This document shows, one piece after another, positions 6,660 through 23,133 of a DNA stretch of 62,268 bases. The stretch is from Vulcanimicrobiota bacterium (lineage in GTDB: Bacteria; Vulcanimicrobiota; Xenobia; Xenobiales; JADMJV01). Position 1 is the stretch's first letter, and each line of letters starts with the position of its first letter. The stretch lies in contig JBJHCR010000002.1 of the NCBI GenBank assembly GCA_050486105.1, positions 1-62,268 of the forward strand. Direction: 5' to 3'. A model generated the notes under the pieces. It was not told the DNA's origin, ran no database searches, and saw only the letters and a program-made list of their open reading frames with translations. The position numbers and the translations under genes are program-made.

Positions 6660-8675
6660 CTACAGGGGAGCAGCCTCAGCAGTAGGCACCGGCTCTCGAC
6701 TTGCTCCCGGTACGGCAACCGAAGCCACAGAAAAGTCCACCAACCTTCTGGCTCCTCCACTCTCCTCAACGATCAAACGCGCCGCATCGCCAAGAGGCAC
6801 CGGCAACACCGAAGCCATGTAGATGTCGTACCAGATCTGAAAAGACAATAGGCTCAGGATCTTGTTGGCTAGGCTGCTCTCACCCCCTTGGAAGCGATCT
6901 AGCAAGGAGCCCACCTCGTGAGCATCAAAAAGTCCGTGTCGATGCAGTTCGCTAGGACTGAGCGCTTCTTTAGCGTAGTCGAAGAGCCAACCCTGAAGCC
7001 ACTGATTGACCGGCAGCACGAAACCTTCTTTGGGCCGGTCGATGGCCGAGGCCGGCAGAAACGGGCGAGCCACCTTCTTGAGCACGACCTTCACATCTTG
7101 GTCTCGAATCTTAAAGTGCTCCGGGATGCGCGCCGCATACTCCATCACCTGGGTATCCAAGAACGCCGTCCGGATTTCCAAGGAGTGAGCCATGGACAGG
7201 CGGTCGGTGAAGGCCAAAACCTGATCTGGCAACTGGGTTCCAAATTCGGCTTCCAAAATACGGTTGGTGGGGTCTTGGGCGGTCAGATTGGAGAACACCC
7301 GTTTGAGATGCTGCAAGGTCGAATATCCCCGAAAATCATCTCGAACAGCAGGAGAATAAAGCCTCTCTTTCTCGTGATCCTGAAACACTGTCAGTCGAGC
7401 CCGCCAGGTGTAGTCCCGGGAGTCGGCGATGCTTTCCAAGAACTCCCTAGGCTGACCTTCGACGAAGTGACCGAGATCGCCCGGGTCTCGAGACTCGCCT
7501 CGCGCCCTCATCAACTCTGCCACCGGTCGGGCCAATCGGTGGGATAAATATGAGCCGAAAAGCTCGTCGGCCCCGTCTCCGGAGATGGCCACCTTCACGT
7601 GCTTGGCGATTAAGCGGGCCAGAAAATAGGTCGACACCACTCCGGAAAAAGGCTCGTCAAAATGGCTGAGGATAGCCGGAAGTTCTCGCTGGAAATCAGA
7701 GAAATTCATCTGCTCTTCTAGGTGGTCCGTCCCATAGCGAGCCGCGATCTGCCGAGCACAGCGCAGATCCAACTCCTTGCCGGGAGTCGACGAATCTTGA
7801 CTATAGGTCAAGGTGAAAGTCTTGATTCGGCCTGAGGCCACCTCGGCCGCCAAGGCCGTTGACAGACTGCTGTCTATTCCTCCGGACAAGAAGAATCCGA
7901 TGGGCACATCGGAAACCAAGCGTCGGCGAACTGCCTGCTTAAGACGTGTCGTCAACTCGTGGGCGATCTCGTCCTCGGTCACGGTATTGGGCAGGGGAGT
8001 CCAATCCAGCTTCCAGTATTGATCCTTACGCACGATCCGTCGATTTTTCCAAAGTAGACGGTGCCCGGGCCTAAGCATCTTAATTCCCTGGAAGATGGTC
8101 ATGGGCGCCGGGACGTTCTTGTACGAAAGATAGTGATGGACAGCTTCAAGGTTCAGACGTCGGGGGAAATTCGGGACCACCAAGAGAGCCTTGATCTCTG
8201 AAGCAAACCAGAGGCAGCCTTCGTGCTCCAGATAGTACAAGGGCTTCTTACCTGAGCGGTCCCGCACCAGGAGCCCTTGCTGCTCAGCCTCGTCGTAGAC
8301 CGAAATGGCAAACATACCTTCGAGCTTCTGCGGGAAATCTAAGCCAAAGGCGCGATACAGATGAGGGATCAGTTCGGTGTCTCCATCGGTGGAGAAATCT
8401 TCCCTTTGGCAGGCCCCCGAGGCGATCAGCTCATCTCTACGTTCGCGAAAATTGTAGAGCTCACCGTTCTGCGCCGCCCAGATGGTCTTGCTAGGCTCGC
8501 ACAGGGGCTGCCGACCATGGGCCAAATCAATTATAGAAAGCCGACGCGCTCCCAGGGTATAGCCCTCACCATAGACTAGGTGCTGGTCGTCGGGACCTCG
8601 GTGGGCCAAAACCCGCAGCATTCGAGCCACCACCTCCGGGACTCTGGTTCCGAACACGCCTGCGATACCGCACAT
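6660..8675 (-). CDS. asparagine synthase (glutamine-hydrolysing) family amidotransferase, paralogue 2
   Basis: The N-terminus MCGIAGVFG and the PP-loop FLSGGIDSS are present. The protein is 671 aa, in tandem with paralogue 1. Confidence 0.85.
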   Translation of the reverse strand: MCGIAGVFGTRVPEVVARMLRVLAHRGPDDQHLVYGEGYTLGARRLSIIDLAHGRQPLCEPSKTIWAAQNGELYNFRERRDELIASGACQREDFSTDGDTELIPHLYRAFGLDFPQKLEGMFAISVYDEAEQQGLLVRDRSGKKPLYYLEHEGCLWFASEIKALLVVPNFPRRLNLEAVHHYLSYKNVPAPMTIFQGIKMLRPGHRLLWKNRRIVRKDQYWKLDWTPLPNTVTEDEIAHELTTRLKQAVRRRLVSDVPIGFFLSGGIDSSLSTALAAEVASGRIKTFTLTYSQDSSTPGKELDLRCARQIAARYGTDHLEEQMNFSDFQRELPAILSHFDEPFSGVVSTYFLARLIAKHVKVAISGDGADELFGSYLSHRLARPVAELMRARGESRDPGDLGHFVEGQPREFLESIADSRDYTWRARLTVFQDHEKERLYSPAVRDDFRGYSTLQHLKRVFSNLTAQDPTNRILEAEFGTQLPDQVLAFTDRLSMAHSLEIRTAFLDTQVMEYAARIPEHFKIRDQDVKVVLKKVARPFLPASAIDRPKEGFVLPVNQWLQGWLFDYAKEALSPSELHRHGLFDAHEVGSLLDRFQGGESSLANKILSLLSFQIWYDIYMASVLPVPLGDAARLIVEESGGARRLVDFSVASVAVPGASREPVPTAEAAPL

Positions 8676-8791
8676 AACGCTACCTCTCCTCGCACCGTCG
8701 ACACCCCAAAACGGTCCTCATTCTTCGCGCCCCTCGTTATCGGTCGGTGAGGGTTGCACCTTGAGGCTTCTTTTGCCCTGGGTCGGAGATG

Positions 8792-9319
8792 CTAAACAGA
8801 CCACTGACTTCTCAGAACGGCCATCCTGACCACATCACTGAACTCTCCGTCCAGGAAGAATTCTTCCCTCAGCAACCCCTCTTCACGAAATCCGGATTTC
8901 TCAAAAGCCTTTTTCGCTCGAGGATTCCGGGCACTGACATACAGATAAACCTTGTTTAGCCCCAATTTGGCGAAAGCAAACTTCAGCAAGAGTCGACAGG
9001 CTCTGGTGCCGTACCCTCGCCCCTGGACCTTGGCCTCGCCCAAAAGAATCCTCAGCTCGGCGTTCCTATTGATCCAATGGATATTGTGCAGCCAGACGTT
9101 TCCTAAGTAGCGATCGTCCTTCAAGGTTCTCACCGCAAAGACTGCGTTCTTGGGGTCTTGCACCGTCTGCCGATACCAGGCTTCATGCTGCTCGAGACTC
9201 ACCGGAAGTGCCCGTCCCAATAGAGTCGACAAAGCCTCGTCATTGACCCAGCTTCGATAAATGTCCGCGTCTTCGGGTTCGAATGGGGCCAATCTGATTT
9301 CCTCATCGGATACGATCAC
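8792..9319 (-). CDS. GNAT-family N-acetyltransferase (RimJ/RimL/SpeG-like)
   Basis: 175 aa with a GTG start. The acetyl-CoA binding segment QGRGYGTRACRLLLKFAF (Q/RxxGxG/A) is present, and the overall pattern is RimJ-like. Confidence 0.75.
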   Translation of the reverse strand: MIVSDEEIRLAPFEPEDADIYRSWVNDEALSTLLGRALPVSLEQHEAWYRQTVQDPKNAVFAVRTLKDDRYLGNVWLHNIHWINRNAELRILLGEAKVQGRGYGTRACRLLLKFAFAKLGLNKVYLYVSARNPRAKKAFEKSGFREEGLLREEFFLDGEFSDVVRMAVLRSQWSV

Positions 9320-9328
9320 CGCTGCACC

Positions 9329-9850
9329 TCACATATATTTCAGCAGGCCCTCAGCCTTGACGAGGATCTTCTTCTCATTCAGATAGGAAAGCTTCTTCTT
9401 AGCCACTCCAATATCGAACCACCCCACAGTATCGGCTTCCTGGTCTCTAGGCTGAGCGTTCTCCTGCACCAGACGCATGAGAAAAAACGTCACGGTCTTA
9501 TGGTAGAATGTGGAGTTCTCTTTCAAAAAGAAGTAGTATTCGATGGACTCAAGCTTTTCCAAAACCTTCCCCACATGGCCGGTCTCTTCAAGAATCTCGC
9601 GCTCGGCGGTCTGCTCCAGGGTCTCTCCCTTATCGACTCTCCCTTTTGGAAAGGCCCACACTCGATGACCCTTCTTGGCCACCAGACAGACCTGAACCCG
9701 ACTGCCTCGTTTCTTCACCAATAGCCCCCCAGCCGAGTGCTGTTCGGCTTTTCGGCCGCCAAAGAAGGCTCTCGGGGGCGGAGCGCCTTCATTCTCCGCC
9801 AAAATCGAGATCCTCGGTCTGTTGTCTCTTGAACTGAACGTCCCGGGCAA
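9329..9850 (-). CDS. NUDIX hydrolase
   Basis: The Nudix box GKVDKGETLEQTAEREILEETG matches GX5EX7REUXEEXGU. The ORF-track TTG start at 9850 overlaps the upstream gene by 62 nt, and an alternative TTG lies at 9802. The start is uncertain. Confidence 0.75.
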   Translation of the reverse strand: MPGTFSSRDNRPRISILAENEGAPPPRAFFGGRKAEQHSAGGLLVKKRGSRVQVCLVAKKGHRVWAFPKGRVDKGETLEQTAEREILEETGHVGKVLEKLESIEYYFFLKENSTFYHKTVTFFLMRLVQENAQPRDQEADTVGWFDIGVAKKKLSYLNEKKILVKAEGLLKYM

Positions 9851-11297
9851 AACTGAGGTCGAAGAACACCCACCCGTCGGAATCTACTCCACCGTTGCGG
9901 GTGTACGCTAGCCTTGAAATCCCAGGGAAGACCTTGATGGGGCGCCTTTCGTTTCGCTCCTTGGCCATCTTCTGATAGTCGCGAACTAAGGTACGGATGA
10001 TATAGGGATGATACTCATACATCATGGGCACCACAAAATCCACTGGCCAATCGAGCCAAGCTTGAGCTGAATAGTCGTATCCCGAACTTCGAAAGCGATT
10101 CTGGTCTCGGTCTCGATAGTACAGGGGTAGGACGGCGGCCGACAACGGAAACCTCCGAGGCATCACCGCTCTAATCTCGGTGACCAGTTCCGCCAAGGAA
10201 GCTTGGCGAAGCTCGAGTTCCTGCTGCAAGGCTCGATAGGTCCTCATCTGCTCGGGATCGGAAGCACTGAAGTAACGAATGCTCCCATCCTCGATGCCCA
10301 AATTTTGAGAGAGGCCTTGCCCGTCGACCGGATAGCGAATGTGGTCTAGGTGAAGTCCACCCAGGCCCGGGTGGGTGGACACGATGTTCTGGCACACCTC
10401 CAATAAGGTCTGCCTGACCACAGGATGGGCCGGGTTCACGTAGATCGGTCTCAGGCGCTTTCCCCGAGGTGCCGGAAACGGATCCTGATCCGTTGCCAAG
10501 AGTAAGAAATCCGGACGGTCTCCTCCAGCCTTGATGATTTCCGCGATCAACACCCCGATGGGACGGCCCTGGGTTCGATATCCAGCTTGCCGCAACAGAG
10601 ACTCTAGCTCCCTAACATCGCAGCCTCGGTCAAAGATCTCGGCGGCGGCGGCCACCACGGCGACTGGAATCAGGTCCCCAAGAGTGGCCCTCTCCTGCTG
10701 CTCATATCCCGGACGAACGGTGCGTCCCTGGGCAAACTCGAGTTGTTCTGCCTGGATCCGCAAATATTCGCTCATCAAGGAAGCCCAGACTGAAAGCCCA
10801 TCGTGCCACGGCAACATGACATCGGTGTTGTCCATCCTCCAATAGAAAAGATGGATCCAAGCGTGGATTTCAACTCCGACTTTCTGTCCCTCGTCGATAA
10901 AGATTTGCAACGGATCGTGGACCACGCCGTACTCGGCTCGATAGGGCCACCAAAGATGGGGATATACGGGGGAGGTGTTGGTGCCGGGTCGATAGGTGAG
11001 CACCTGAGGCAGTCCCTGTTCGGAAGACAGGGAAATGGTTGGACAAATACCGTAGCCTCTCAGAAAGGTTTCCAAGAAAACGGTGTCCACTCCCGCCCGG
11101 GCCAAATTCGACAAGACTTCCTGAGCCGAGGCGCGCACTTCAGCCTCGCTGTATTTACGCTCCCCTGGAAACAGCCAATCCGGAGAGAGCCAAACCCCCG
11201 ACATTTCCTGGCCTTGCACCGGAAAAATCAGGGACATCAGAATGATCATCGAAAGGAGTGCTCTGACTCTTATTGGGCGAGAGAAGATTAATGGCAT
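9789..11297 (-). CDS. glycoside-hydrolase-like family 10 (GHL10 / YngK-DUF187-like) secreted protein
   Basis: ATG start with a signal peptide (MPLIFSRPIRVRALLSMIILMSLIFPVQG). A TIM-barrel-like segment carries GLGGLHLDHIRYP, characteristic of GHL10 proteins. Confidence 0.6.
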   Translation of the reverse strand: MPLIFSRPIRVRALLSMIILMSLIFPVQGQEMSGVWLSPDWLFPGERKYSEAEVRASAQEVLSNLARAGVDTVFLETFLRGYGICPTISLSSEQGLPQVLTYRPGTNTSPVYPHLWWPYRAEYGVVHDPLQIFIDEGQKVGVEIHAWIHLFYWRMDNTDVMLPWHDGLSVWASLMSEYLRIQAEQLEFAQGRTVRPGYEQQERATLGDLIPVAVVAAAAEIFDRGCDVRELESLLRQAGYRTQGRPIGVLIAEIIKAGGDRPDFLLLATDQDPFPAPRGKRLRPIYVNPAHPVVRQTLLEVCQNIVSTHPGLGGLHLDHIRYPVDGQGLSQNLGIEDGSIRYFSASDPEQMRTYRALQQELELRQASLAELVTEIRAVMPRRFPLSAAVLPLYYRDRDQNRFRSSGYDYSAQAWLDWPVDFVVPMMYEYHPYIIRTLVRDYQKMAKERNERRPIKVFPGISRLAYTRNGGVDSDGWVFFDLSFARDVQFKRQQTEDLDFGGE

Positions 11298-11494
11298 CGG
11301 AATGCGGTTCTTGACCTAGCATGCGATCCCTTTAGAGGAGAACTCATGCTCAGGAAAGTTCGGGAAAGAGCCAGGGAGAGCAAGCATTCATTCAGAATTC
11401 TTGAAGTCTGAAGCCTGCAGACTATCTCGACGAAAACTTTCGATTCTTCTATGTCATAAAACGTTCAAGACTTTCTGTTATACTTACCACTTAA

Positions 11495-12010
11495 GTGGAA
11501 TCAATGAAGGCTAAAACATGGTTCGAGAGAACTCCAACCGAGTCGGATCAAACAGGGTTAACGCTCATCGAGACGATGCTGGCATGCATCATGTTGAGCC
11601 TCATCATTGTTAGTGTACTGGGCTTGCTTGGCAGCCTCTTGGTGGCTAGTACCAAAACCAGTGACAGCACGGCTGGAGTCTTTGTGGCCCAATACGTGCT
11701 CGATAAGTGTACCTCTGCTGGACCGCCCAGCCCCACAGGAGGATCAGAAGAGGGGACACGCAAACTCTTGACTCACGAGCTTGACCATCCCCTCGACTTT
11801 CATTACAGGGCGGATTGGCGCCTAATAGGAGAGCCCGGAAGTTATCTTGACGCCCAAGGGCGACGCCAAACCAATCAGTTCGCCAAGGCTTTGTATCACG
11901 TCAGGGTCACAGTCTGGTGGATGGTAGAGGACGCCGAAGACATGAGATTGGAGGGAGGGGGACGACGCTCCGTCCTATTGGAAAGAGTGATCGAGTTCGA
12001 ACCCAAATGA
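11495..12010 (+). CDS. prepilin-type N-terminal cleavage/methylation domain protein (pseudopilin-like)
   Basis: TG|LTLIETMLACIMLSLIIVSVLGLL is a class III signal peptide with Glu at +5 followed by a hydrophobic helix. The protein is 171 aa. Confidence 0.65.
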   Translation: MESMKAKTWFERTPTESDQTGLTLIETMLACIMLSLIIVSVLGLLGSLLVASTKTSDSTAGVFVAQYVLDKCTSAGPPSPTGGSEEGTRKLLTHELDHPLDFHYRADWRLIGEPGSYLDAQGRRQTNQFAKALYHVRVTVWWMVEDAEDMRLEGGGRRSVLLERVIEFEPK

Positions 12011-12711
12011 GGTGCTTCGCCAGAGCGAGTTGCCCAAAGGTCAAGGGATTTACCATCACGGAAGCGCTGGTGACCAGCCTGGTCTTCAGTTTCTTTGTGA
12101 CAGTCGTTTTCTTGACTATTGCCTGGGGATTTCGCACCTTTTCCCTAGCCGTAGCCCGCTCCGACGTCAGCACCGAAGCTCGAAGACTGGCTCTCTTTAT
12201 GGAAACCGAACTGCTCACTTCGGACTACTTCTCCGTAAGTACGGTCAGTAGGTCCGTTCGCAACGACAGAAGAGATGGGCTGTGCTTCGTTTCCCGCAAC
12301 GACTGGTCCCACCCCAACTCTTATGATGCCATTGAAGGTCGACCAGCTTGGAACCGATACTTTGTGTTTTACGTCACCACCGAACAACCGACCGGTTCGT
12401 TCATTCGGGCGGTCATCAATCCTAGCGACAGCAGCGAAGTTGGACCTTTCGTTTACGGCCCATTTGCCGCTAACCCGGCAACCTATCTCACCAATGACCC
12501 TTCTCAGAACGTAGGCACGGATGTCGAAATGGCTCGAGTGATCGCCTCATCCGTGAAGAGCTTTACCGTAGAGAAGATCCCCTCTACACAGGAGGTGGAT
12601 ATGCGGATCCTTCTGCGTCAAAATTCTGTCATAAGCCGGAGAGGAGACGGAAAGAGGGAAGGCGGGACCTTCGAAGTTCACTATCGAGTAGCCCCCCGCA
12701 ACACAATGTGA
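12007..12711 (+). CDS. prepilin-type N-terminal cleavage/methylation domain protein (pseudopilin-like)
   Basis: The start was set at the ATG at 12007, giving MRCFARASCPKVKG|FTITEALVTSLVFSFFV. This ATG overlaps the upstream TGA (ATGA), whereas the ORF-track start at 11917 lies inside the upstream gene. Confidence 0.65.
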   Translation: MRCFARASCPKVKGFTITEALVTSLVFSFFVTVVFLTIAWGFRTFSLAVARSDVSTEARRLALFMETELLTSDYFSVSTVSRSVRNDRRDGLCFVSRNDWSHPNSYDAIEGRPAWNRYFVFYVTTEQPTGSFIRAVINPSDSSEVGPFVYGPFAANPATYLTNDPSQNVGTDVEMARVIASSVKSFTVEKIPSTQEVDMRILLRQNSVISRRGDGKREGGTFEVHYRVAPRNTM

Positions 12712-12921
12712 TTCCATTGTCCAGGACCTCAGCGAACCCTGGCGACCCCCCCTTCGAGCCTCTGGCCTGGGCACGAATTCCGTGTCTCGACAGTCCTTGA
12801 GCAGCTGCTTTCAAAACACTGCGGAGCCGAGACGAGAAGGGGCCCACCGAGATCGGAACTCAAAGGTGGATAAATGGTAAACACCCAAAACGGAGAACTG
12901 CTCGGCTAGAGAACTTGAGTA

Positions 12922-14340
12922 ATGAACCCAGACCTTCCCTCGACGAGTCAGGATAGTTGCCCGTTTTCCAGCGACGGCGAGTACCTCGACCAACTGGTCC
13001 AATTAAAAATCCGGCCTTTGGCTTGGGCCCTGGTAGCCATTTGCGCCTTCGTTTTCGTCTTCCGAGCGGCTACCATGACAGGAAGAACCCAGGTCTTTCA
13101 ACTCCTGATCATCAGCTGCACTGCCGGAGGCGCCTTGCTTCTCTTGGCGCTTCTCCCTAGGATCCCATCCCGCTTCTCCCATGGGGTACTCTGTTTTCTG
13201 ACCATACTGGCCGCCGCCGCCCAAGGCCTTTCAGCCCTCAACTCCGAGACTGAGACCTTCCAAGGTTTCTTGCTCCTCATCGCCCTAAGCTTGGGCCTCG
13301 TGATGTACCGACTTGCTTGGGCCCTCCTGGGTGCCTGCATCGCTCTAGGAATATGGATCATCTGGGACACCTGGAAATTTGGCTCGCCGAACTTTGACAC
13401 CATCACCATAGTCACCATCAGCTTGGTTTTGGTTACGACCTACCTTCATATTCGCAGGGCCACCATGCTTTCCACCCTGGCTCTGTCAAACAGTGTCCAA
13501 CAGCAGAGCCAAAATCTCCATCAAGCTTTGGAAGCTCAACAGCGCAATCGTGAACTGCTCTGCCTCCGTGTCGCTGAACGTGAACGACAACTCGAACAGG
13601 CCCTTCAGTCTCTCCAGTCAAGCGTCTTGCAACAACGCTCTCTACAAGGTTTCATTGAAAAGCGGAGACGCTGGGAATCTCTCGCTCGGATCGGCACCAC
13701 CACGGGGAAATCGCTGCAAGAACAACTTTTGTTGGTGCAAGCCGAGTTAGAGGAGATTCAGAGCAAAGTTCCCTCGACGGGAGATGAGCTACATTATTTC
13801 GAGGAGATCCGCAAAGCCACCGAACAGAGCTTGAGGCTCAACACCAAGCTTCTCGCCTTCGGCCAAATCCTGAAACTTAATCTGGAAAACCGATCGGTGT
13901 CGTCTTTGCTGCAAGACGTTTGGGACCCTCTCTTGGAAAAGCTGCAGGAAAAATTTGAAGTAGAAACTCTGATCCACCAACCTGAAACCGAAGTCCTGGT
14001 CGATTCCGTGCTTTTTGGAGGCGCCTTGAGCGAACTTTTGACCAATGCTCAAGACGCCATGCCGATGGGTGGCAAGATTACGCTTGAGGCCGATGGAGGA
14101 CCTATGGGATGCCTCTTTACCCTCTCCGACACCGGAATGGGAATTCCCGCCGGCAAGAGAGAGCAAGTCTTCGAACCATTTTTCACAACCAAAACTCTTG
14201 GTTCCGGGATGGGGCTACCCTCCGCTCTCGGGGTCCTTGAACAGCACGGAGGTTGGCTAAAAATCGATTCTCACCCAGGGTGTGGAGCCCAGGTTGTCTT
14301 CTGGCTCCCGAAAGGGCCAGAGATTGAAGCATCACCGTGA
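12922..14340 (+). CDS. membrane sensor histidine-kinase paralogue with intact ATPase domain but Lys at the phospho-acceptor position
   Basis: About 5-6 N-terminal TM helices are followed by a coiled coil. The CA boxes are intact: N (LLTNAQDAM), G1 (DTGMGI), F (FEPFFTTK) and G2 (GSGMGL). The DHp helix reads ESLARIGTTTGKSLQ, where the consensus has ...GxxH(D/E)xNN. Confidence 0.8.
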   Translation: MNPDLPSTSQDSCPFSSDGEYLDQLVQLKIRPLAWALVAICAFVFVFRAATMTGRTQVFQLLIISCTAGGALLLLALLPRIPSRFSHGVLCFLTILAAAAQGLSALNSETETFQGFLLLIALSLGLVMYRLAWALLGACIALGIWIIWDTWKFGSPNFDTITIVTISLVLVTTYLHIRRATMLSTLALSNSVQQQSQNLHQALEAQQRNRELLCLRVAERERQLEQALQSLQSSVLQQRSLQGFIEKRRRWESLARIGTTTGKSLQEQLLLVQAELEEIQSKVPSTGDELHYFEEIRKATEQSLRLNTKLLAFGQILKLNLENRSVSSLLQDVWDPLLEKLQEKFEVETLIHQPETEVLVDSVLFGGALSELLTNAQDAMPMGGKITLEADGGPMGCLFTLSDTGMGIPAGKREQVFEPFFTTKTLGSGMGLPSALGVLEQHGGWLKIDSHPGCGAQVVFWLPKGPEIEASP

Positions 14341-15737
14341 CGGACTCTAGAACCCACCCGGCCGATTCTTTGGAAAACTTCCATGAAGAGAAGTGCCGAG
14401 AGTCGATGGAGGTCGTTTCGCTCCTAGGTGTGGTGGGTTACTTGATCGTTGCTATCCGGGATGTGGCGGTCGTCGGACCCTTGAGTCTCCTGCAATTCTT
14501 TCTGCTCCGTGACGCTTTGATGGTCGCTTTTTTCCTCTCTTTAAATCAGGTTCTAATGCGGGACGTTCTCCCTCGGGGATGGGCCCATCCCATGGCCTTT
14601 CTCAGCTGCGTTCTCCCGTGTTTGGGCACAGCCCTGGGGGTGCACGCGGGTGGAGACTTCATCCCTACAGGCTACTTCTTTTTGATCATCATCACCGCTG
14701 CTCTGGTCATGCTGAATATCTCCTGGTTTCTGTCGGCCTGCGCTATCACCATCGTGTCTTGGGGGGTTTCCTTCATGCCTTACTTCGAGAAAGAACTCTT
14801 CATCGAACAGGGGATAACTCTGGTGAGTTGCTGTCTGGTGGCGGGGGTTGCTCTGACTACTCGGCGCAACGAACTTCACCAACAATATCTCCTTTTGGAG
14901 ACAGAACGCAGCAAGCAAAGCGATCTGAGAGAGGCCTTGAATATCAACGCTGACCTCACCTCGAAACTCGACCAGGAGGTCGAAAAGCAAACGTCAGAAC
15001 TCTCTCGGCGTTTGGAAGAGCTTCATCAGTCCAAGGTCAAGGAAAGAAAGTTGGGTGAAGAAACCGCACGACTAGCGCGCGTCGAATCCGTGGGCCGGTT
15101 AGTCGGGGGCCTGGGACATCGATTCAACAATCTCTTCACCGTCATGCTGGGAAACACAACTATGCTGCAAGAGATTCGGGTAGATCAGGACAGGACCCAA
15201 GAAGGGGCCCTACTCGACCGCATGGAGGGTGCCATACTCCGTGCCAGTCGAGCGACTCAACCTCTAGCCTACCTAACCAATCCAGACTTGGAGAAAGTCG
15301 ACACCTTGAATCTTAAGGAAATCTATCTGCGATTGAAGGATTTTTTGGAAAGTTCGCTCTCACCAAAGCATCAGTACCGTTGTGATCTGGCGACTCCGAG
15401 TCAGATTCTAGAGGTCAATTTGGCCGCTCTCTACCAACTCTTACTCAATTTGTTTATCACCATCGATCAAACCTTGCCTGATAGGGGAAGCCTCCACCTT
15501 TTGCTCGAGAGCACGGAAAACGAGGCCACATTCACCTTGGAATGTCGCACCGAGCCTGATTCCAAAACCCAAGAATCATTGGCCTTGGGAAATCTGGACA
15601 CTCTAAATTCCTCTCTTTCGGCTATTTCCGGACGGCTCAATGTGGAGGAAGGGCGCCAGGGAACTAACATCATACTGACCTTCCCCACCAAGGCCTCCAA
15701 GGAGTCCAGCCGCCAAACTCAAAGCCAAGACCCATGA
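14337..15737 (+). CDS. membrane sensor histidine-kinase paralogue with H-box but degenerate ATP-binding domain
   Basis: A GTG start overlaps the upstream TGA (GTGA). It has a multi-pass TM N-terminus and a canonical H-box (ESVGRLVGGLGHRFNNLF). The C-terminal domain (LLLNLFITIDQTLPDRGSL...ECRTEPDSK...LGNLDTL) has no recognisable DxGxG or GxGxG. Confidence 0.7.
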   Translation: MTDSRTHPADSLENFHEEKCRESMEVVSLLGVVGYLIVAIRDVAVVGPLSLLQFFLLRDALMVAFFLSLNQVLMRDVLPRGWAHPMAFLSCVLPCLGTALGVHAGGDFIPTGYFFLIIITAALVMLNISWFLSACAITIVSWGVSFMPYFEKELFIEQGITLVSCCLVAGVALTTRRNELHQQYLLLETERSKQSDLREALNINADLTSKLDQEVEKQTSELSRRLEELHQSKVKERKLGEETARLARVESVGRLVGGLGHRFNNLFTVMLGNTTMLQEIRVDQDRTQEGALLDRMEGAILRASRATQPLAYLTNPDLEKVDTLNLKEIYLRLKDFLESSLSPKHQYRCDLATPSQILEVNLAALYQLLLNLFITIDQTLPDRGSLHLLLESTENEATFTLECRTEPDSKTQESLALGNLDTLNSSLSAISGRLNVEEGRQGTNIILTFPTKASKESSRQTQSQDP

Positions 15738-16324
15738 TTTTGTTGCGGTTCCTGGTCCTTATATTCCTGGCGATTGCTACCCCCCTTGTCGCTGAGCAGG
15801 TTGTCGAGCATCAAGGTCGCCCACTAGTTACCTTTGACTTGCCTGGTTTCGACCTGAGGGGCCAACGGACGGGCAAGACCTCTACCCTGACTTATGTTGG
15901 TCAGGATTCGCTCGAAAAGCGAGTTCAAGTGCAGGTCAAGATCAGAGGTTGGTTGGGTCCCGACAAGGCTGAGAAAGAGTATCGAGAAGACCGGATGCTG
16001 CGCAGGCAAGATCCTCATACCAGACTAGGTGAAGATCTGGTTGTGTCCGGCGCCACAAAGGCTCTAGAGTTTCGAACAACCCAACCGTATGAGGCCCATG
16101 TTTTGGTGATCTACACCAACGACTTTCGCTGCGAATTCACGCTGACTGGTAGCGAAGCTACTCGAGAATCAAGAGAGGCCCTCTTCAGTCAACTTCGTGA
16201 GTCGGTCAAGGTTCCGAAAGGTGGACTACGCCTAAGTCCAGAGGCCGACGAGCCCACCCCCGAGCCGGAGCTTCCTAAAATCGAGTTCCGCACGAAGCCG
16301 GCTCCTAAGGAACTCCAAGATTGA
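15734..16324 (+). CDS. secreted protein, function unknown
   Basis: The ATG overlaps the upstream TGA (ATGA). A signal peptide is present (MILLRFLVLIFLAIATPLVAEQ). 196 aa. Confidence 0.55.
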   Translation: MILLRFLVLIFLAIATPLVAEQVVEHQGRPLVTFDLPGFDLRGQRTGKTSTLTYVGQDSLEKRVQVQVKIRGWLGPDKAEKEYREDRMLRRQDPHTRLGEDLVVSGATKALEFRTTQPYEAHVLVIYTNDFRCEFTLTGSEATRESREALFSQLRESVKVPKGGLRLSPEADEPTPEPELPKIEFRTKPAPKELQD

Positions 16325-16343
16325 TAGGGCCCAGTTCAAGCAC

Positions 16344-18128
16344 TCATAAAGGCCAAAGACGAGGCAAAAAGAAAGACGCCAGCAGCCATAGGGTCAGATT
16401 GAGCGGGCCACCGACCTTCAAGAAATCTGTAAAGCGGTATTGACCTGGACCGTAGATCATGGTGTTGGTCTGATAGCCAATGGGAGTCATGAAACTTGCT
16501 GAGCAGGCGAAGGCCACAGCGAACAGGAGTGCCCTAGGTTCCCAACTCATGGATTCGGCCACTGCCAAGGCTAGAGGAGCCATGAGGGCGGCAGTGGCCG
16601 CATTGGAGATCAGTTCGGTCATAACCGTGGTCATCAAGTACACCCCACTGACCACCACCGCTGGACCGAAAGGTCCTAGGACTGAGGTAATCTCCCCAGC
16701 CAAATACACTGCTACTCCGGTCTTCTGCATGGCCAAACCTAAGGACAAGGAGCCGGCGATCAGCAAAATCACCTTCCAATCTAGAGCTCGGTAGGCCTGT
16801 TCTAGGGTCAAACACCCGAAAACAACCATGAGCACCGCGCCAACCAAGGTTCCGATCTCAATGGGGAGAAGTCCGAACGCGGCCAAACCCACGACCCCGA
16901 CGAAGATGGAAATAGCAGCGACCATCTTGGTTCGCTGAGGACTGTCTACGGCGAACTCACTGACCACCACAAAAGCGGCCCGGCTTCTCAGATCTTCCAA
17001 TCTTGAACGCTCGACTTCAATGAGGAGCACGTCTCCGGCTTCGATCTTGGTGTGCCCCAATTTGGTGTGCAAAACCTCTTCGGACCCCCGGTGGCGAAAG
17101 GCGATCACCAGGGCGCCGAAGCGCTCCCGAAAGTTAGAGGTCTGCAGCGAGTGACCTACAAGCATAGAACCTACGGGTACGACCGCTTCTACCAGGGTCG
17201 CTTCCCGATAGTCGAGATTCTTGTCGTGAACCTTGCTGTCCGACTTCAAACGGACATGATTCTCCCGCCCCAGGCGGCTTAGGACCTCCACTTCGCAACG
17301 AACCATGAGTACATCGTCTGCCCTTAGAATGGTAGACAACGGAGGTAGCGCCAAGACCTCTCCGTCTCGTTCGATACTGACTACGTCCAAGTCGAACTCT
17401 TTCACTAGAGGGGCCGAGCCAAGGGACTGTCCGACATTTGGGCTGCCGGAAAGCAGCACCACCTCGGTCAAGTATGGAACCATATCGTAGGCCTTCATCA
17501 TTTGTCCGGCCCTACGACGTTCAGGGATAGATGAGATTCCGACGAGCAACATGTAGAGCGTGCCCGCCAGGAAAACGAGCACGCCAAATCGAGAAAACTC
17601 AAACATTCCAATAGGCTGCTCCCCGGCACTGACGGCGATAGAGTTCACCACCAAATTGGGAGAGGTACCAATGAGAGTGCAGGTACCGCCAAAGATCGCT
17701 GCAAACGACAAGGGCATGAGCAGCTTTGATGGGCTGATTCGGGTGGCCCTGGAGATCCCCAAGCAAACGGGCATGAAAACTGCCACGCAGGCGGTGTTAT
17801 TCATGAAGCCAGAGAGCAAAGCCACAATGAACATCATCATCGCCATGCCCAAAGGAAAAGAGCGGAGCATCAGTGGACCGAGCAGTTTGGGAATCTTGCT
17901 CACCGCCCCGGTGGAAGCCAAGCCCGAACTGAGGACCAACATGCCGGCCACGGCGATGGTGGCCCCATCACTGAATCCAGCCAGCCCCTCCTGGGGGGTC
18001 AAAATTCCTGATAAGACCAGGGTACCCACCACCAGAACTGCGACCAGATCCACCGCCAGCTTCTCAGTGGCAAAGAGGATGACTGCGGCCAAGACTACGC
18101 CGAGCACTGCGAATCCCTCGAAAGTCAA
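16344..18128 (-). CDS. SLC13/DASS-superfamily anion permease with two central TrkA-C (RCK_C) domains
   Basis: 594 aa. Hydrophobic N- and C-terminal halves flank two soluble repeats (...VVLLSGSPNVGQSLGS...VVSIERDG... and ...VEAVVPVGSMLVGHSL...VIAFRHRG...). This is the typical architecture of CitT/ArsB-superfamily SLC13 permeases. Confidence 0.75.
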   Translation of the reverse strand: MTFEGFAVLGVVLAAVILFATEKLAVDLVAVLVVGTLVLSGILTPQEGLAGFSDGATIAVAGMLVLSSGLASTGAVSKIPKLLGPLMLRSFPLGMAMMMFIVALLSGFMNNTACVAVFMPVCLGISRATRISPSKLLMPLSFAAIFGGTCTLIGTSPNLVVNSIAVSAGEQPIGMFEFSRFGVLVFLAGTLYMLLVGISSIPERRRAGQMMKAYDMVPYLTEVVLLSGSPNVGQSLGSAPLVKEFDLDVVSIERDGEVLALPPLSTILRADDVLMVRCEVEVLSRLGRENHVRLKSDSKVHDKNLDYREATLVEAVVPVGSMLVGHSLQTSNFRERFGALVIAFRHRGSEEVLHTKLGHTKIEAGDVLLIEVERSRLEDLRSRAAFVVVSEFAVDSPQRTKMVAAISIFVGVVGLAAFGLLPIEIGTLVGAVLMVVFGCLTLEQAYRALDWKVILLIAGSLSLGLAMQKTGVAVYLAGEITSVLGPFGPAVVVSGVYLMTTVMTELISNAATAALMAPLALAVAESMSWEPRALLFAVAFACSASFMTPIGYQTNTMIYGPGQYRFTDFLKVGGPLNLTLWLLASFFLPRLWPL

Positions 18129-18292
18129 CGCGAGATCTCCTATCTAGATAAGTCAGCTTCCCTTGCCACAACAAACCAAGGATACCATTTTTGGAGCCTG
18201 AGCTGAATGTGCAAAACTTGGTCTCCTCAGGAAAACCGTTTAAGAGAGAAAAGAAACTAGGGTAAGCCCATCCGATTGAGAAAAGAGTCTGC
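18129..18292. promoter_or_regulatory. divergent intergenic region (promoters for the SLC13 permease and the response-regulator gene expected)
   Basis: A 164-bp gap between divergently oriented gene starts. I could not pick out convincing -35/-10 hexamers. Confidence 0.3.
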
Positions 18293-20647
18293 ATGAAGCG
18301 AGTCCTGATCGCCATGATCCCTGAAAATATCGCCGAATGGATCGAGATCCGACTCGGGGGAATTCGAGTTGTTTCCAGAGATTCGGTAGCAATGAGTCTC
18401 GAGGCGATGCAGGCCGACACCTGGGATCTGATCCTCATTCAACATACAGAATTTGGGCCCCAAGAATCGGAAGAACTGGGAAGTCTAGACTTGCTCGAGG
18501 CCATTCGGCAAACGGACAAGGGGCAAGACACCCCAGTTATTTACGTCTTGGACTCTCCTCCCTCCCGGACCTTGATGAATCAATTGGTCGACACCTACCA
18601 GGTGGCTCGAATTCTGGTCCACCCCCTGGACCCCGAAGATCTGCTGGTGGAGGTGTCGAGAACCCTGAGGCTCTCCCAAATCAACCCAGGAGACGAGCGA
18701 ACCACAGCCCTAAAGAAGCTGTGGCAGAAATTCCTCCCGACCACCATCTCCAGAATTGAAACCTTAGAAAACATGGGAATCGCTTTGGTAGAGGGGCGTG
18801 ACGACCAAGCTTTGCTCGTGAAAGCCGCAGGAGAGGCCCACAAACTGGCAGGTTCCCTGGGCTCCTTTGGTTATCCTCAAGGGTCGGTGCTGGCCAGTCG
18901 TCTGGAACAGATGCTCTCTGAAGAAGTGAGTGTGGACCGGATACCTGAGTTCACCGACCTAGTCCTCAAGCTCCGGAGTTTGATCAACACTCCCGGTGCG
19001 GTAATCAAGCAAAGCGTCGAACCCCTGGGACAGCAGGTCCTGCTCTTGGATGCTCCAGGACAACCCATTCAACTGCCTGTGAAGCAGAGAAACTTTGAGC
19101 TCTTGCGCTCAGAGCATCCAGGACAAGCCATTAAGCACCTTCAGGACAGCAGACCAGGGGCCATAATCGTTCACCTTGGAGTGAGCACCGAAGAGGAAGA
19201 GCGATTCGAATTTCTCCGCAACGCATCTCGTCGCCATCCCGATCTTCCGGTGTTGGTTCTGCTCCCGGAAACAGACCTGGAGCACCGGGTTAAAGCGCTC
19301 AGGAACGGCGCGCAATACTTGCTTGACAGCACCGCTCCTGCTGGACAGATTCAAGACGCCATAGATAGAGTGCTTCAGCAAAAGTTGGAGAGGATTCCGA
19401 GAGTTCTGATCCTCGATGACGATCCTGTTTTTAACGCTTCGGTGGAAGACCTGCTGACGAGAGCCGGAATGAGGGCCCAAGCTATTGTGTCGCCAGCGGA
19501 TTTGATGGAGACTTTGCATTCGTTCAAGCCGGATATCGCTCTGGTTGACATAAATCTTCCGATCATGTCAGGAATCGAAGTCTGTAGGCTTCTCAGGGGT
19601 CTAAGTCGCTGGAACGCCCTTCCAATTGTGCTGATGACCGCTGAAAAGCAATCCGACACGGTAATCAAGGTATTTCGCTGTGGGGCCGACGACTACGTGG
19701 CCAAGCCTGTAGTAGGCCCGGAATTGATAGCAAGAATTCGGAATCGTCTAGAGCGGCAGCAAACCGTCATCGATCTCGGGAGTACCGATCCGGTCACCGG
19801 ACTAGCTTCTTGGACCAGAGCCCGACCAAGACTCCGCAGCTTTCTGGATCTGTCTCGTCGTTCTGGACAGCCCTTGACCTTGGTCCTTCTGGAACTCGAC
19901 GATCTCAAGAACATGAGTCCCCAGAGTGCTGATCGAGAACTAGCTTGTCTCGGTCAGACCTTCGGCAACAGCTTCCGAAGTGAAGACACCGTTGCCAAGT
20001 ATGTTGGTGACCGCCTGATCTTGGGCCTTTACGGAATGCGACTCAGTGATGGCTTAGAGAGGTTGAATGGATTACTGTTGCGTTATAGTGAACGCTGGGG
20101 GAAAACATTCTCTGCTGGACTGGCCACCTTTCCTCAAGACGGGGACTCTCTTGACAGCTTGATCAACATGGCTGATCGCGCCCTGGAAAAAGCTCAAGGC
20201 CTGGGAGGGGGTCGAGTGGTCTCCGGCCAGACCACCTACTCCATAGGAAATTCTACCAAACAGCAGGTGGACGTCGGAGTGGTGGAAGACGATGCCCTAC
20301 TGGCACCGCTCGTTCTGCACGCTCTAGAGAACAAGGGATATCAGACTTTCTGGATCTCTGACGGCCTGGAAGCTTCTCGAAAACTTGTGGGAAAATCCTC
20401 TGACCGACGTGCTCGGGTTCTCCTGCTGGACGTGGACCTTCCCGGATTGTCGGGATATCAATTGCTGCGACAACTCAAAGAAGCAGGTAATTTGGACCAA
20501 ACCAAGGTCATACTGCTGACAGCCCGCACCGCTCAAAGCGATGTCCTAAAAAGTCTGGAAATGGGGGCCGTCGATCACGTCTCAAAACCATTCAGCCTGC
20601 CAGTGCTCCTCGAGAAAGTTCGGCAAGCTCTCAAGTCCGGCGACTGA
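18293..20647 (+). CDS. multidomain response regulator: pseudo-REC / HPt / pseudo-REC / REC / degenerate GGDEF (I-site retained) / REC
   Basis: The HPt motif is EAHKLAGSLGSFG (His183). REC3 is canonical (ILDDD...ALVDINLP...LMTAEK...YVAKP), as is REC4 (VVEDD...LLLDVDLP...LLTART...HVSKP). In REC1 and REC2 the acceptor Asp is replaced (LILIQH, IIVHLG). In the GGDEF domain the active site reads VGDRL, preceded by RSED at the canonical 5-residue spacing. Confidence 0.85.
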   Translation: MKRVLIAMIPENIAEWIEIRLGGIRVVSRDSVAMSLEAMQADTWDLILIQHTEFGPQESEELGSLDLLEAIRQTDKGQDTPVIYVLDSPPSRTLMNQLVDTYQVARILVHPLDPEDLLVEVSRTLRLSQINPGDERTTALKKLWQKFLPTTISRIETLENMGIALVEGRDDQALLVKAAGEAHKLAGSLGSFGYPQGSVLASRLEQMLSEEVSVDRIPEFTDLVLKLRSLINTPGAVIKQSVEPLGQQVLLLDAPGQPIQLPVKQRNFELLRSEHPGQAIKHLQDSRPGAIIVHLGVSTEEEERFEFLRNASRRHPDLPVLVLLPETDLEHRVKALRNGAQYLLDSTAPAGQIQDAIDRVLQQKLERIPRVLILDDDPVFNASVEDLLTRAGMRAQAIVSPADLMETLHSFKPDIALVDINLPIMSGIEVCRLLRGLSRWNALPIVLMTAEKQSDTVIKVFRCGADDYVAKPVVGPELIARIRNRLERQQTVIDLGSTDPVTGLASWTRARPRLRSFLDLSRRSGQPLTLVLLELDDLKNMSPQSADRELACLGQTFGNSFRSEDTVAKYVGDRLILGLYGMRLSDGLERLNGLLLRYSERWGKTFSAGLATFPQDGDSLDSLINMADRALEKAQGLGGGRVVSGQTTYSIGNSTKQQVDVGVVEDDALLAPLVLHALENKGYQTFWISDGLEASRKLVGKSSDRRARVLLLDVDLPGLSGYQLLRQLKEAGNLDQTKVILLTARTAQSDVLKSLEMGAVDHVSKPFSLPVLLEKVRQALKSGD

Positions 20648-20665
20648 AAACATCATGACCATCCT

Positions 20666-21733
20666 ATGACCTACGAACAGCTCTCTAGCTCAACGCTCTA
20701 TTGGCCCACGGTGGTCGAGTTGGTTTTGTTCTGTCTGGCCACAGCGGTCTTGCTTGGTCGAAGCGCCTGGCAGTCTTATTGGGAACACAGGCTCAAGGCA
20801 AGCTTCGAGGCCTGCTATCTGAAGGTGGTGGCTTATCTCACTGAGCAGCACAGCGACCTCGAAGATTCTGCCCAGGCGGTGAAGAAGCTTCCCCAACCAG
20901 AACGACTCAGACTCATCGGAGGACTCACGCTCCATCTGGCTGGGGAAGATCAGGTCCGACTCCTAGCGCTCGCCGATGCCACCGGCCTCATGGAAACCGC
21001 AAGTTCTGGATGTCGAGACCACCGCTGGTGGGTCCGTCTCCAAGGTGTTCGGACTCTAGTGACCTTGGGCAAAGCAGACCAAATACCTGAGACCCTGGTG
21101 AGAGATCCCCACTACTTGGTGCGAGCGGAAGCCGCCTACCTTTGGACCAGCCGGGGAACCGAAGGTATCGCGAGCTTGATCGAACTCCTAGGAGAGCCAT
21201 CTATGGTGGCTCGCTTCACCGTACAAGACGCCCTTTTGCGGATGGGGCAAGCCGTGGGGGAACCCCTCTCGAAGTTTCTAGCCAAGGAGGAGCAAGCAGG
21301 GACTTTGCCGGCTCTCGAAGTGGCCAGCCGGCTCGCCCACCCTGCCACCCTGATAGCTATCCTCAACCTCGCCAACAGTGAAGACGCCGAAATTCGAACG
21401 GCCTCGGCCAAGGCCTTAGGAGGCTTGGGAGGCAAGGACGCTCAAGACAAACTCTTGCATCTCCTCGACGACGTGAACCCCGAAGTGCGGGTCGCGGCAG
21501 CCGAAGCCGTAGGAGTTCTCTCAGATTGGAAGGCCACAGCCAAACTTGCAACCCTGCTGAGCGACGAGAACTGGCCGGTGCGAAAGGCCGCCGGTCTAGC
21601 TCTGATCCAAACCGGTCCTCCTGGAAAGTTGTATCTGACTCGATATGCTCGAGAAGATAAGAGTATGGCAGGAATCATGTCTCGCTATGTCTTGGCCCTT
21701 CCCTACGAACCCCACCCGGAGGAGTCTTTTTGA
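20666..21733 (+). CDS. membrane-anchored HEAT-repeat (PBS-lyase-type) protein
   Basis: One N-terminal TM helix (LYWPTVVELVLFCLATAVLLG) is followed by about six HEAT-like repeats (DPHYLVRAEAA, DAEIRTASAKALGGLG, DVNPEVRVAAAEAVGVL, DENWPVRKAAGLALIQTG). Its stop overlaps the start of the GT2 gene. Confidence 0.7.
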   Translation: MTYEQLSSSTLYWPTVVELVLFCLATAVLLGRSAWQSYWEHRLKASFEACYLKVVAYLTEQHSDLEDSAQAVKKLPQPERLRLIGGLTLHLAGEDQVRLLALADATGLMETASSGCRDHRWWVRLQGVRTLVTLGKADQIPETLVRDPHYLVRAEAAYLWTSRGTEGIASLIELLGEPSMVARFTVQDALLRMGQAVGEPLSKFLAKEEQAGTLPALEVASRLAHPATLIAILNLANSEDAEIRTASAKALGGLGGKDAQDKLLHLLDDVNPEVRVAAAEAVGVLSDWKATAKLATLLSDENWPVRKAAGLALIQTGPPGKLYLTRYAREDKSMAGIMSRYVLALPYEPHPEESF

Positions 21734-23133
21734 ACATTTGGCTTGAGCAACTCATTCTGGTCTATTTTCTCTTCGTCAACACCTTCTACGCTCTAGCCTT
21801 GCTTTTTGCAGCCCGAGAAATGAAGGACCATAAGAGACAGATCTGGGGAGAAAATTCGTACCGACTTTTGAGCTCCGAGATCACTCCCAAGGTCAGCGTT
21901 CTGGCTCCTGCTTTCAATGAAGAGTTGACCGTCGTAGGAAGTGTCAGGGCCCTCCTCAACCTGCACTACTCCAACTTGGAGGTGGTGGTTATCAACGACG
22001 GTTCTCCGGACCGCACCCTCGAAGTGCTGGTTCAGGCCTTCAAGCTTAAGCCCGTGGAACCGACCTATCACCTACAGCTCAAGACCTCTGAAATTCGAGG
22101 CTTGTACTTGACTCCGGACTACCCGAATCTGGTGGTGGTTGACAAAGTCAATGGGGGCAAGGCTGACGCCTTGAATCTTGGTCTTCAGATCGCTTCCGGA
22201 AAACTGATCTGCGCTATCGATGCCGACACTCTGGTGGAGTTCGACGCTCTCCAGAAAATGGTCAGGCCGTTTCTGTATCAAAACGATGTGGTTTGTGCTG
22301 GAGGGACTCTGCGAGTTCTCAATGGCAGCGTCGTTCAGGGAGGGGCGGTGAAGGAGGTCCGGACCCCGAGAACCCCACTGGAAGGCTTTCAAGCCGTGGA
22401 GTACGTGAGAGCCTTCCTGTTCGGACGCTTGGGGCTCAACAGAATGGGGGGGAATCTGATCATTTCCGGGGCCTTTGGCCTCTTTGACCGTCAGGCGATG
22501 GTCTCTGCTGGTGGCTATGCCCACGATTCTGTGGGTGAAGACATGGAACTGGTGGTGCGACTGCGTCGACTGGGGGTGGAGAACAAAACCGCTTCCAAGG
22601 CCGTTTTCATCCCCGATCCGGTGGCCTGGACCGAGGTTCCCTCATCCTTGCGAGTGCTCTTTCGTCAGAGAGATCGCTGGCATCGAGGACTGGCCGACGT
22701 TCTCTGGAGGCACAAAAAACTGTGTCTAAACCCAAAATACCGAGCCATGGGAAGCGTGGTCTACCCTTACTTCCTAACGGTAGAGTTGTTGAGCCCTCTG
22801 GTGGAAGCGGCAGGCCTGGCGCTAGTACTCTGGCAAGCCTATACCGGAGAGCTGTCCCTGAAATTCTTCTTGCTCTTTTTCCTGGTAGCCTATGGCTATG
22901 GAATACTCTTAAGTATTTTTGCCATGCTCCTCGACGAAGAGATCTTTGGCCGCTTTAAAACCGTTAAAGAGAGGGTCATCCTTTTGTTTTGGGTCCTGCT
23001 GGAAAACCTCGGTTACCGCCAATTCACCGTCCTGGCCAGACTCAGAGGGCTCTTCAAGTATCTCTTAGGTGACACCGCCTGGGGCAAAATGGAGCGCCAG
23101 GGTCTGACCAAAGAAACAGATGATGAGGAATAG
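21730..23133 (+). CDS. processive family-2 glycosyltransferase (PgaC/IcaA/BcsA-like polysaccharide synthase)
   Basis: A TTG start overlaps the upstream TGA. Motifs present are VLAPAFNEE, INDGSPD, DADT (DxD) and RQRDRWHRG (QxxRW). TM helices lie at the N-terminus and in the C-terminal third. There is no C-terminal PilZ-sized extension. Confidence 0.85.
   Translation: MNIWLEQLILVYFLFVNTFYALALLFAAREMKDHKRQIWGENSYRLLSSEITPKVSVLAPAFNEELTVVGSVRALLNLHYSNLEVVVINDGSPDRTLEVLVQAFKLKPVEPTYHLQLKTSEIRGLYLTPDYPNLVVVDKVNGGKADALNLGLQIASGKLICAIDADTLVEFDALQKMVRPFLYQNDVVCAGGTLRVLNGSVVQGGAVKEVRTPRTPLEGFQAVEYVRAFLFGRLGLNRMGGNLIISGAFGLFDRQAMVSAGGYAHDSVGEDMELVVRLRRLGVENKTASKAVFIPDPVAWTEVPSSLRVLFRQRDRWHRGLADVLWRHKKLCLNPKYRAMGSVVYPYFLTVELLSPLVEAAGLALVLWQAYTGELSLKFFLLFFLVAYGYGILLSIFAMLLDEEIFGRFKTVKERVILLFWVLLENLGYRQFTVLARLRGLFKYLLGDTAWGKMERQGLTKETDDEE

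Follow-up and report, generated by a model that had tools for sequence, protein, structure and literature searches.

Two adjacent membrane histidine kinases with reciprocal motif loss, a candidate split sensor kinase in a Vulcanimicrobiota bacterium

Histidine kinases are usually treated as self-sufficient homodimers. In group A Streptococcus, the proteins FasB and FasC, which resemble kinases, formed heteromers, not homomers, in two-hybrid assays; the kinase domain of FasC was dispensable, its residue H246 was required, and FasB was proposed to phosphorylate H246 in trans (PMC12675982). Here we describe a stretch of 62,268 nucleotides from a Vulcanimicrobiota bacterium (contig JBJHCR010000002.1 of assembly GCA_050486105.1; hereafter the window) in which two adjacent genes encode membrane histidine kinases, HK1 and HK2, with complementary losses. 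HK1 has a Lys in place of the phospho-acceptor His and a complete catalytic and ATP-binding (CA) domain; HK2 has the His and a CA-like domain stripped of its ATP-binding motifs. We give an even chance to the proposal that the two make up a subfunctionalised hetero-oligomeric kinase, in which the ATP-binding domain of HK1 would phosphorylate the His of HK2.

By analogy, FasB/FasC is the closest tested precedent for this pair, the likeness drawn here being one of organisation. Both loci encode adjacent, multi-pass membrane kinase-like proteins, those of the Fas pair being co-transcribed, and in both the acceptor His is carried by the partner whose kinase domain is not needed, a property that for HK1 and HK2 is read from motifs alone. 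In contrast to HK1/HK2, both Fas proteins have recognisable dimerisation and histidine-phosphotransfer (DHp) and HATPase domains, and FasB keeps its DHp histidines. The Fas split was shown by deletions, whereas the one described here is written in the sequence, with a Lys at the acceptor position of one protein and the ATP motifs gone from the other. Furthermore, HK1 and HK2 have no adjacent response regulator gene.

An acceptor and a kinase module carried on two polypeptides, as proposed for HK1 and HK2, are also found in CheA3 and CheA4 of Rhodobacter sphaeroides, neither of which autophosphorylates alone while their mixture does; according to the same report, 3.66% of HisKA proteins have no ATPase domain (PMC3591291). 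CheA3 and CheA4 belong to the CheA class and are devoid of whole domains, whereas HK1 and HK2 are class I membrane sensors of full length in which both folds are retained. In neither HK1 nor HK2 does Pfam recognise an Hpt, CheA dimerisation or CheW-like domain.

ChpT and Spo0B resemble HK2 in combining a DHp His with a CA-like domain unable to bind ATP, and HK2 differs from them in its membrane sensor domain and CA-intact neighbour. Structures of ChpT and Spo0B are not among the matches listed for the HK2 model (Foldseek, VIA), which excludes nothing. DivL, in which a Tyr replaces the acceptor His, resembles HK1 in lacking that His while keeping a kinase-like fold; HK1 differs in retaining all catalytic ATP motifs and in having a complementary partner next door, and DivL 4q20 matches its CA region only (1.2e-12, phmmer). 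In RetS-GacS, two different sensor kinases pair through their DHp domains, as proposed here, but that pairing inhibits a self-sufficient kinase, and neither HK1 nor HK2 can be self-sufficient. Together with a laboratory-evolved ChrS pseudokinase, DivL and RetS-GacS illustrate other uses of incomplete kinases. In the literature searched, with subscription-only papers outside its scope, we found no account of neighbouring class I kinases in which the His and the ATP motifs have been lost reciprocally. The novelty, judged from the sequence, lies in two full-length membrane sensors whose reciprocal degeneration has become fixed and which can be compared with an intact orthologous pair.

Reciprocal motif states of HK1 and HK2

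The features of the pair, by position in the window, are the following.

12922..14340, + strand: HK1, 472 aa, membrane kinase without acceptor His and with an intact CA domain (open reading frame (ORF) list, Pfam, AlphaFold 2 (AF2))
12922..13491, + strand: N-terminal multi-pass membrane sensor region of HK1, residues 1-190 (hydropathy scan)
13708..13710, + strand: codon AAA of Lys263, in the phospho-acceptor His column of HK1
14023..14313, + strand: HATPase_c match of HK1, residues 368-464 (Pfam, phmmer, hmmalign)
14337..14340, + strand: GTGA overlap between the HK1 stop and the HK2 GTG start (ORF list)
14337..15737, + strand: HK2, 466 aa from the GTG, membrane protein with the acceptor His, a degenerate CA domain and no counterpart of its orthologue's receiver tail
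15117..15119, + strand: codon CAT of His261, phospho-acceptor His of HK2 in a near-consensus H-box
15312..15701, + strand: CA-like domain of HK2, residues 326-455, modelled fold kept and ATP-binding motifs lost

An earlier note, made from the letters of the window, had described the two reading frames, their coordinates and the GTGA overlap, and all of these hold in the ORF list. A public gene call prefers to start HK2 at Met24 (ATG 14406), which yields 443 aa. The residues before Met24 align with a conserved N-terminal segment of paralogues (MAFFT), and GTGA or ATGA overlaps also occur in paralogous kinase pairs. Several hydrophobic segments lie within residues 26-149 of HK1 and five are predicted in HK2 (hydropathy scan). 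A Pfam scan recognised a sensor domain in neither protein; as a lead only, a protein-atlas look-up suggests that the sensor region of HK1 may resemble MASE-type membrane sensor clusters.

K263 of HK1 occupies the acceptor-His column in four independent alignments: phmmer against ZraS 9jfj and CckA 5idj, MAFFT of 17 and of 60 sequences, and hmmalign to the family profile. This bears out the earlier note, which had placed a Lys at that position. The H-box of HK1 is degenerate throughout, beyond the His alone, and the protein has no match to HisKA, HisKA_2 or HisKA_3 at E up to 1 in Pfam. H291 of HK1, which the earlier note had named as an example of a residue whose alignment at the acceptor position would overturn its reading, is placed there by none of the alignments. 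In the AF2 model H291 falls where DHp helix 2 starts, adjoining the hairpin loop and 28 residues from the acceptor position, and we rejected it as an alternative acceptor because of this location at the hairpin tip. On the other side of the protein the ATP-binding machinery is complete, again as the note had read it. Pfam HATPase_c matches HK1 with an E-value of 1.1e-18, and every motif residue is present (N375 in the N box; D403, G405 and G407 in G1; the F box; G427, G429 and G431 in G2). Residues 232-472 are modelled as a DHp hairpin followed by a CA domain, with a predicted local distance difference test score (pLDDT) of 91.7.

HK2 is in the opposite state. Its H261 aligns with the acceptor His of CckA and of LvrB, and both H261 and N265 are invariant in a 62-row alignment, although the Pfam HisKA match stays below threshold (E 0.15, 12.6 bits vs a cut-off of 26.9). 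The loss of the CA motifs, which the earlier note had also pointed out, is confirmed in the alignments: a Thr replaces the Mg-binding Asn of the N box, G1 is removed by a deletion of 10-12 residues, the F and G2 boxes are unrecognisable, and Pfam finds no HATPase_c match in HK2 at E up to 1. The fold appears to have outlived the motifs. Residues 225-466 are modelled with a pLDDT of 85.7, the top Foldseek match of the model is ZraS (4.7e-11), and the CA-like domain superposes on the CA domain of ThkA (Z 15.4, root-mean-square deviation 2.5 A over 128 residues) and matches CckA (Z 14.5), both with VIA. The models thus predict that both proteins keep the DHp hairpin and alpha/beta CA domain of the class I histidine kinase fold. 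The nearest relatives of HK2 are hybrid proteins in which the kinase is fused to a receiver.

Such states are rare among the relatives of the pair. All 235 relatives that cover the region from H-box to G2 have the acceptor His, and 232 of them have the N-box Asn. Of these relatives 138 come from the HK2 search, which gave 148 aligned representatives, and 97 from the HK1 search, which gave 98 aligned hits; the 11 partial rows were left out. Against this background the reciprocal states are exceptional, more so than expected by chance. Nor are they slips of assembly, since independent assembly contigs of a sequencing run that possibly comes from the source sample (X1) show zero differences over 12800..16400. 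X1 is the only run that contains the stretch, and it does so as contigs alone; no RNA data set is listed for 12922..15737. The X1 contigs, at a depth of about 7-fold, break at 15431-15446 and 15667-15685, inside the CA-like region of HK2, and no letters differ at either break. Both frames stay open over about 470 codons. The codon-usage score is positive in frame and lower in the shifted frames in every sub-region, including the DHp region of HK1 and the CA-like part of HK2, and the GC content is even (0.49-0.59 over 8000..22000), with no sign of foreign DNA.

Ancestry of the pair and kinases of the source genome

HK1 and HK2 share 24% identity over 144 residues (E 1e-6), and tandem pairs of the same membrane-kinase family are present in related genomes. 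We built a maximum-likelihood tree of 28 rows, 21 of them family genes from the window and related loci and seven picked from 150 listed representatives. In this tree the genes that stand second in their pairs group together in one clade (12 rows; 99/98, starred). HK2 has P0104 and the second gene of a pair in a related genome (G009:C5) as its sister group (98/96, starred), and HK1 is sister to the first gene of that same pair (92/93). A tree on the sensor and coiled-coil columns, from which DHp and CA were excluded, gives the same placements (HK2 96/90, starred; HK1 80/86). Furthermore, a sister grouping of HK1 with HK2, named after the tree was seen, is rejected by an approximately unbiased (AU) test (p 0.000155). 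Because of these placements and this rejection, the phylogeny assigns HK1 and HK2 to an old two-gene module, inherited together, as its first and its second gene, and they are not fresh duplicates.

Both genes of the G009:C5 pair are intact: each encodes the His, a HisKA and a HATPase_c domain, and the second also a receiver domain, which is absent from the C-terminus of HK2. Comparison with these orthologues shows where each protein has been conserved. The CA domain is the best conserved region of HK1 (37% identity) and its two DHp helices are the worst (20% and 18%); for HK2 the best region is DHp helix 1 with the H-box (43%). In the whole-length tree HK1 and HK2 have the longest end branches (1.81 and 1.68, vs a median of 0.62). 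In the sensor-region tree the branch of HK1 measures 1.57 vs 1.44 for its sister, and that of HK2 1.22 vs 1.77 for the sister path. The sensor regions have thus evolved no faster than those of the orthologues, which confines the extra change to the transmitter (DHp/CA) part.

The order to which the bacterium belongs is represented by 40 genomes in the collection searched. These relatives yielded no closer orthologues of HK1 or HK2, G009 alone scoring below 1e-40. The best match of HK1 is 31% identical (word-indexed search of 5.8 billion proteins), and the best non-self match of HK2, P0104, is 28% identical (full HMMER search of 1.84 billion representatives with HK2 as query). HATPase_c was found in 19 of 19 family kinases scanned, a 20th submitted protein being a MatE transporter. 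In another related genome (G018:C36, 3865-5226, - strand) the first gene of a pair keeps its His, carries an Arg instead of the N-box Asn together with diminished G1 and G2 boxes, and is followed downstream by an intact hybrid kinase; CA degeneration therefore recurs in the family.

A census of the source genome itself, with a profile made from 14 family rows, matched 82 ORFs, of which 65 cover the region from H-box to G2. In the His column 63 of the 65 have a His, the others being the Lys of HK1 and a Gln in the kinase at C194 4971..6698; in the Asn column 64 have an Asn and one, at C103 9927..12518, an Arg. The Gln kinase belongs to a second complementary pair.

C194, 1-1746 and 4971-6698, + strand, source genome: complementary kinase pair

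The first kinase of this pair has HisKA with its His and no HATPase_c, and the last has the Gln at the acceptor column and an intact HATPase_c. They are separated by two genes, the order being His-bearing kinase, REC/BTAD regulator, T2SS-F protein and Gln kinase, and no orthologue of either kinase was found in the 40 relatives. Only 23 of the 82 kinase-like ORFs have a kinase neighbour within 3.5 kb, and both of the His-less, CA-intact kinases (HK1 and C194 4971..6698) have a His-bearing, CA-dead kinase within that distance.

Other kinases of the source genome depart from the consensus as well. At C103 5428-8018 (+ strand) a GAF-PAS-HisKA-REC hybrid keeps its His, has an Arg in place of the N-box Asn and degenerate G1 and G2 boxes, and directly adjoins an intact PAS hybrid kinase. 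At C112 2281-8647 (- strand) lies a four-gene array of the HK1/HK2 family with 4-base overlaps, whose proteins are 21-24% identical to HK1 or HK2. The acceptor column of its third gene is ambiguous, holding a Glu according to MAFFT or a His four residues upstream according to hmmalign, and the first and third genes have receiver-like tails missed by Pfam.

Genes around the pair

HK1 and HK2 are adjacent and co-oriented, joined by the GTGA overlap or, with the alternative start, separated by 66 bases. No terminator-like site lies between them on the + strand, and a promoter and terminator scan of 11300..18400 found nothing above shuffled expectation. Their arrangement fits a single transcription unit and suggests that they are probably translationally coupled. 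Two further features of the neighbourhood concern the pair.

15734..16324, + strand: ORF of 196 aa with an N-terminal hydrophobic segment, ATGA overlap with the HK2 stop
18293..20647, + strand: multi-receiver/Hpt/GGDEF protein with Response_reg (2.1e-51, 3 stretches), Hpt (5.7e-08) and GGDEF (4.4e-12) matches in Pfam

The 196-aa ORF has no Pfam or NCBIfam match. It is probably co-transcribed with HK1 and HK2 and probably not a functional part of the kinase pair. With a convergent CitMHS/TrkA-C transporter gene it occupies window positions 15734-18128, the two being 44% and 60% identical to their counterparts at G001:C350. Among the loci of CitMHS orthologues taken from four relatives (50-65% identity, tblastn), the 196-aa ORF is kept in G001:C350 only, where it adjoins the CitMHS gene. 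The kinases are absent upstream of it there, an HlyD-like gene and an ABC ATPase standing in their place. The conserved transporter is only 52-61% identical among genus mates, so that these "genus mates" are distant. Just upstream of HK1, at window positions 11495-12711 (+ strand), are two overlapping ORFs of 171 and 264 aa that weakly match the prepilin N-terminal methylation motif (E 0.61 and 0.015).

Pfam agrees with the earlier note that no response regulator gene adjoins the pair and that the REC/Hpt protein starts at 18293. This protein could be the nearest possible phospho-acceptor for HK2.

Competing explanations and consequences for sensor kinases

The explanation that we favour starts from an old module of two membrane kinases. 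The first gene would have lost its acceptor His and H-box and kept the catalytic ATP-binding domain, and the second would have kept the His and H-box and lost ATP binding together with its receiver tail. The DHp helices would bring HK1 and HK2 together in a heterodimer or a larger hetero-oligomer, the CA domain of HK1 would bind ATP and phosphorylate His261 of HK2 in trans, and HK2~P would hand the phosphoryl group to a receiver domain, perhaps that of the REC/Hpt/GGDEF protein at 18293..20647. The output would then be governed by two different membrane sensor domains and the state each is in. Three parts of this scheme are inferred: that the proteins bind each other, which way phosphoryl groups travel and which protein lies downstream. 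What speaks most for a split kinase is that every catalytic residue persists in HK1, whose acceptor decayed, and that the opposite holds for HK2. The evidence fits a working partnership in several other respects: the module is co-inherited, the retained modules are the best conserved, the sensors are not accelerated and the predicted folds are confident. The partnership proposed in the earlier note is therefore supported in part, by the reciprocal loss and the co-inherited module. Conservation of the states in orthologous pairs, which the note had proposed to check, is not borne out, the only orthologous pair found being intact.

Several points weigh against a split kinase. The sole orthologous pair is intact, which means that the module can do without reciprocal loss; the degenerate states occur in a single metagenome-assembled genome, with no relative closer than about 30% identity among the 5.8 billion proteins of the word-indexed search or the 1.84 billion representatives. 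The sister relation between HK1 and the first G009 gene is only moderately supported by the trees. With ATG 14406 as the start of HK2, the two genes would not overlap and would stand 66 bases apart. Two pairs make up the census association, which was recognised in hindsight. In terms of sequence motifs the His lies on one partner and the kinase motifs on the other, and phosphorylation in this family may run in trans or in cis. Finally, an acidic residue after the His assists autophosphorylation in HisKA kinases, and in HK2 an Arg, not an acidic residue, follows it. This last objection is tempered by a comparison of nine kinase pairs (the window pair and related loci), in which the acidic residue is absent from 8 of the 9 second genes. 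In first genes the acceptor His is mostly followed by Asp (7 of 9), in second genes by Arg, Lys or Leu (8 of 9), a difference that consistently separates the two members of the module.

The two proteins could instead do separate jobs, with no phosphorylation of HK2 by HK1, a reading that we regard as unlikely, if far from negligible. HK2 would be a membrane phosphotransferase or phosphatase of the ChpT/Spo0B kind, taking phosphoryl groups from the receivers of hybrid kinases or stripping them from a response regulator, and HK1 an ATP-binding pseudokinase that regulates HK2 or another kinase, in the manner of DivL or RetS. A DHp His with a CA-like fold devoid of ATP motifs is indeed the layout of ChpT and Spo0B, and HK2 has it; its orthologue is a hybrid kinase with a relay-type architecture, the many hybrid kinases of the source genome could act as donors, and His-less pseudokinases are known as regulators (DivL and RetS-GacS). 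Against this, HK1 has kept all its catalytic ATP motifs after long divergence, which suggests that catalysis, and not a scaffold, was under selection. Moreover, HK2 has no Pfam HPTransfase (PF10090) match at E up to 1 and is membrane-bound, whereas ChpT and Spo0B are soluble proteins, and both the exact complementarity and its recurrence at C194 would be coincidence. HK1 and HK2 could also each be completed by other paralogues, such as the four C112 kinases, as mixed oligomers in a multi-kinase network. The four-gene array of the same family makes such partners available in the source genome, and heteromeric multi-kinase networks are documented for GacS/RetS/LadS/PA1611 (PMC12189002). But HK1 and HK2 are co-inherited partners by phylogeny and probably translationally coupled, and the C112 proteins resemble them at the low identity given above, which makes completion from elsewhere very improbable to our minds.

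Decay would do without any function of the present states. A rearrangement would have cut off the HK2 receiver, selection on both genes would then have relaxed, and the complementary losses would be due to chance. This account draws on end branches that are the longest of the family tree, on a state unique to one genome, on the lack of synteny with relatives (other genes precede the downstream ORF and transporter in G001:C350) and on the several other degenerate kinases of the source genome, and, were one module lost at random from each gene, a complementary outcome would be as likely as not. It has to contend with frames that are intact despite about 1.7-1.8 changes per site, with sensor regions that evolve no faster than their orthologues and with retained modules that are the best conserved parts and have all motif residues in place. 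Furthermore, the in-frame codon signature persists in the degenerate parts, and both cytoplasmic parts are predicted to fold with high confidence. We consider decay improbable.

If HK1 and HK2 do form a split kinase, they would be a natural version of the laboratory complementation between His-less and ATP-dead mutants, and the route from two complete kinases to one obligate heteromer would be readable through the intact orthologous pair. The pair would also provide a clean system for how DHp helices encode heterodimer specificity, and one for asking whether splitting catalysis from acceptance gives two-signal logic or ultrasensitivity, as modelled for split CheA. More tentatively, and with the balance of probability somewhat against it, hard-wired split kinases may be two-input devices, obligate heteromers of full-length receptors acting as an AND gate, that arose twice, in HK1/HK2 and in the unrelated C194 pair, by degeneration and complementation within pre-existing partnerships. 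In such a device one receptor would contribute catalysis alone and the other the acceptor alone, and both sensors would have to be permissive for phosphorylation to occur. For annotation the pair is a warning against writing off as dead a His-less kinase, or a HisKA protein that lacks an ATPase, beside a complementary neighbour.

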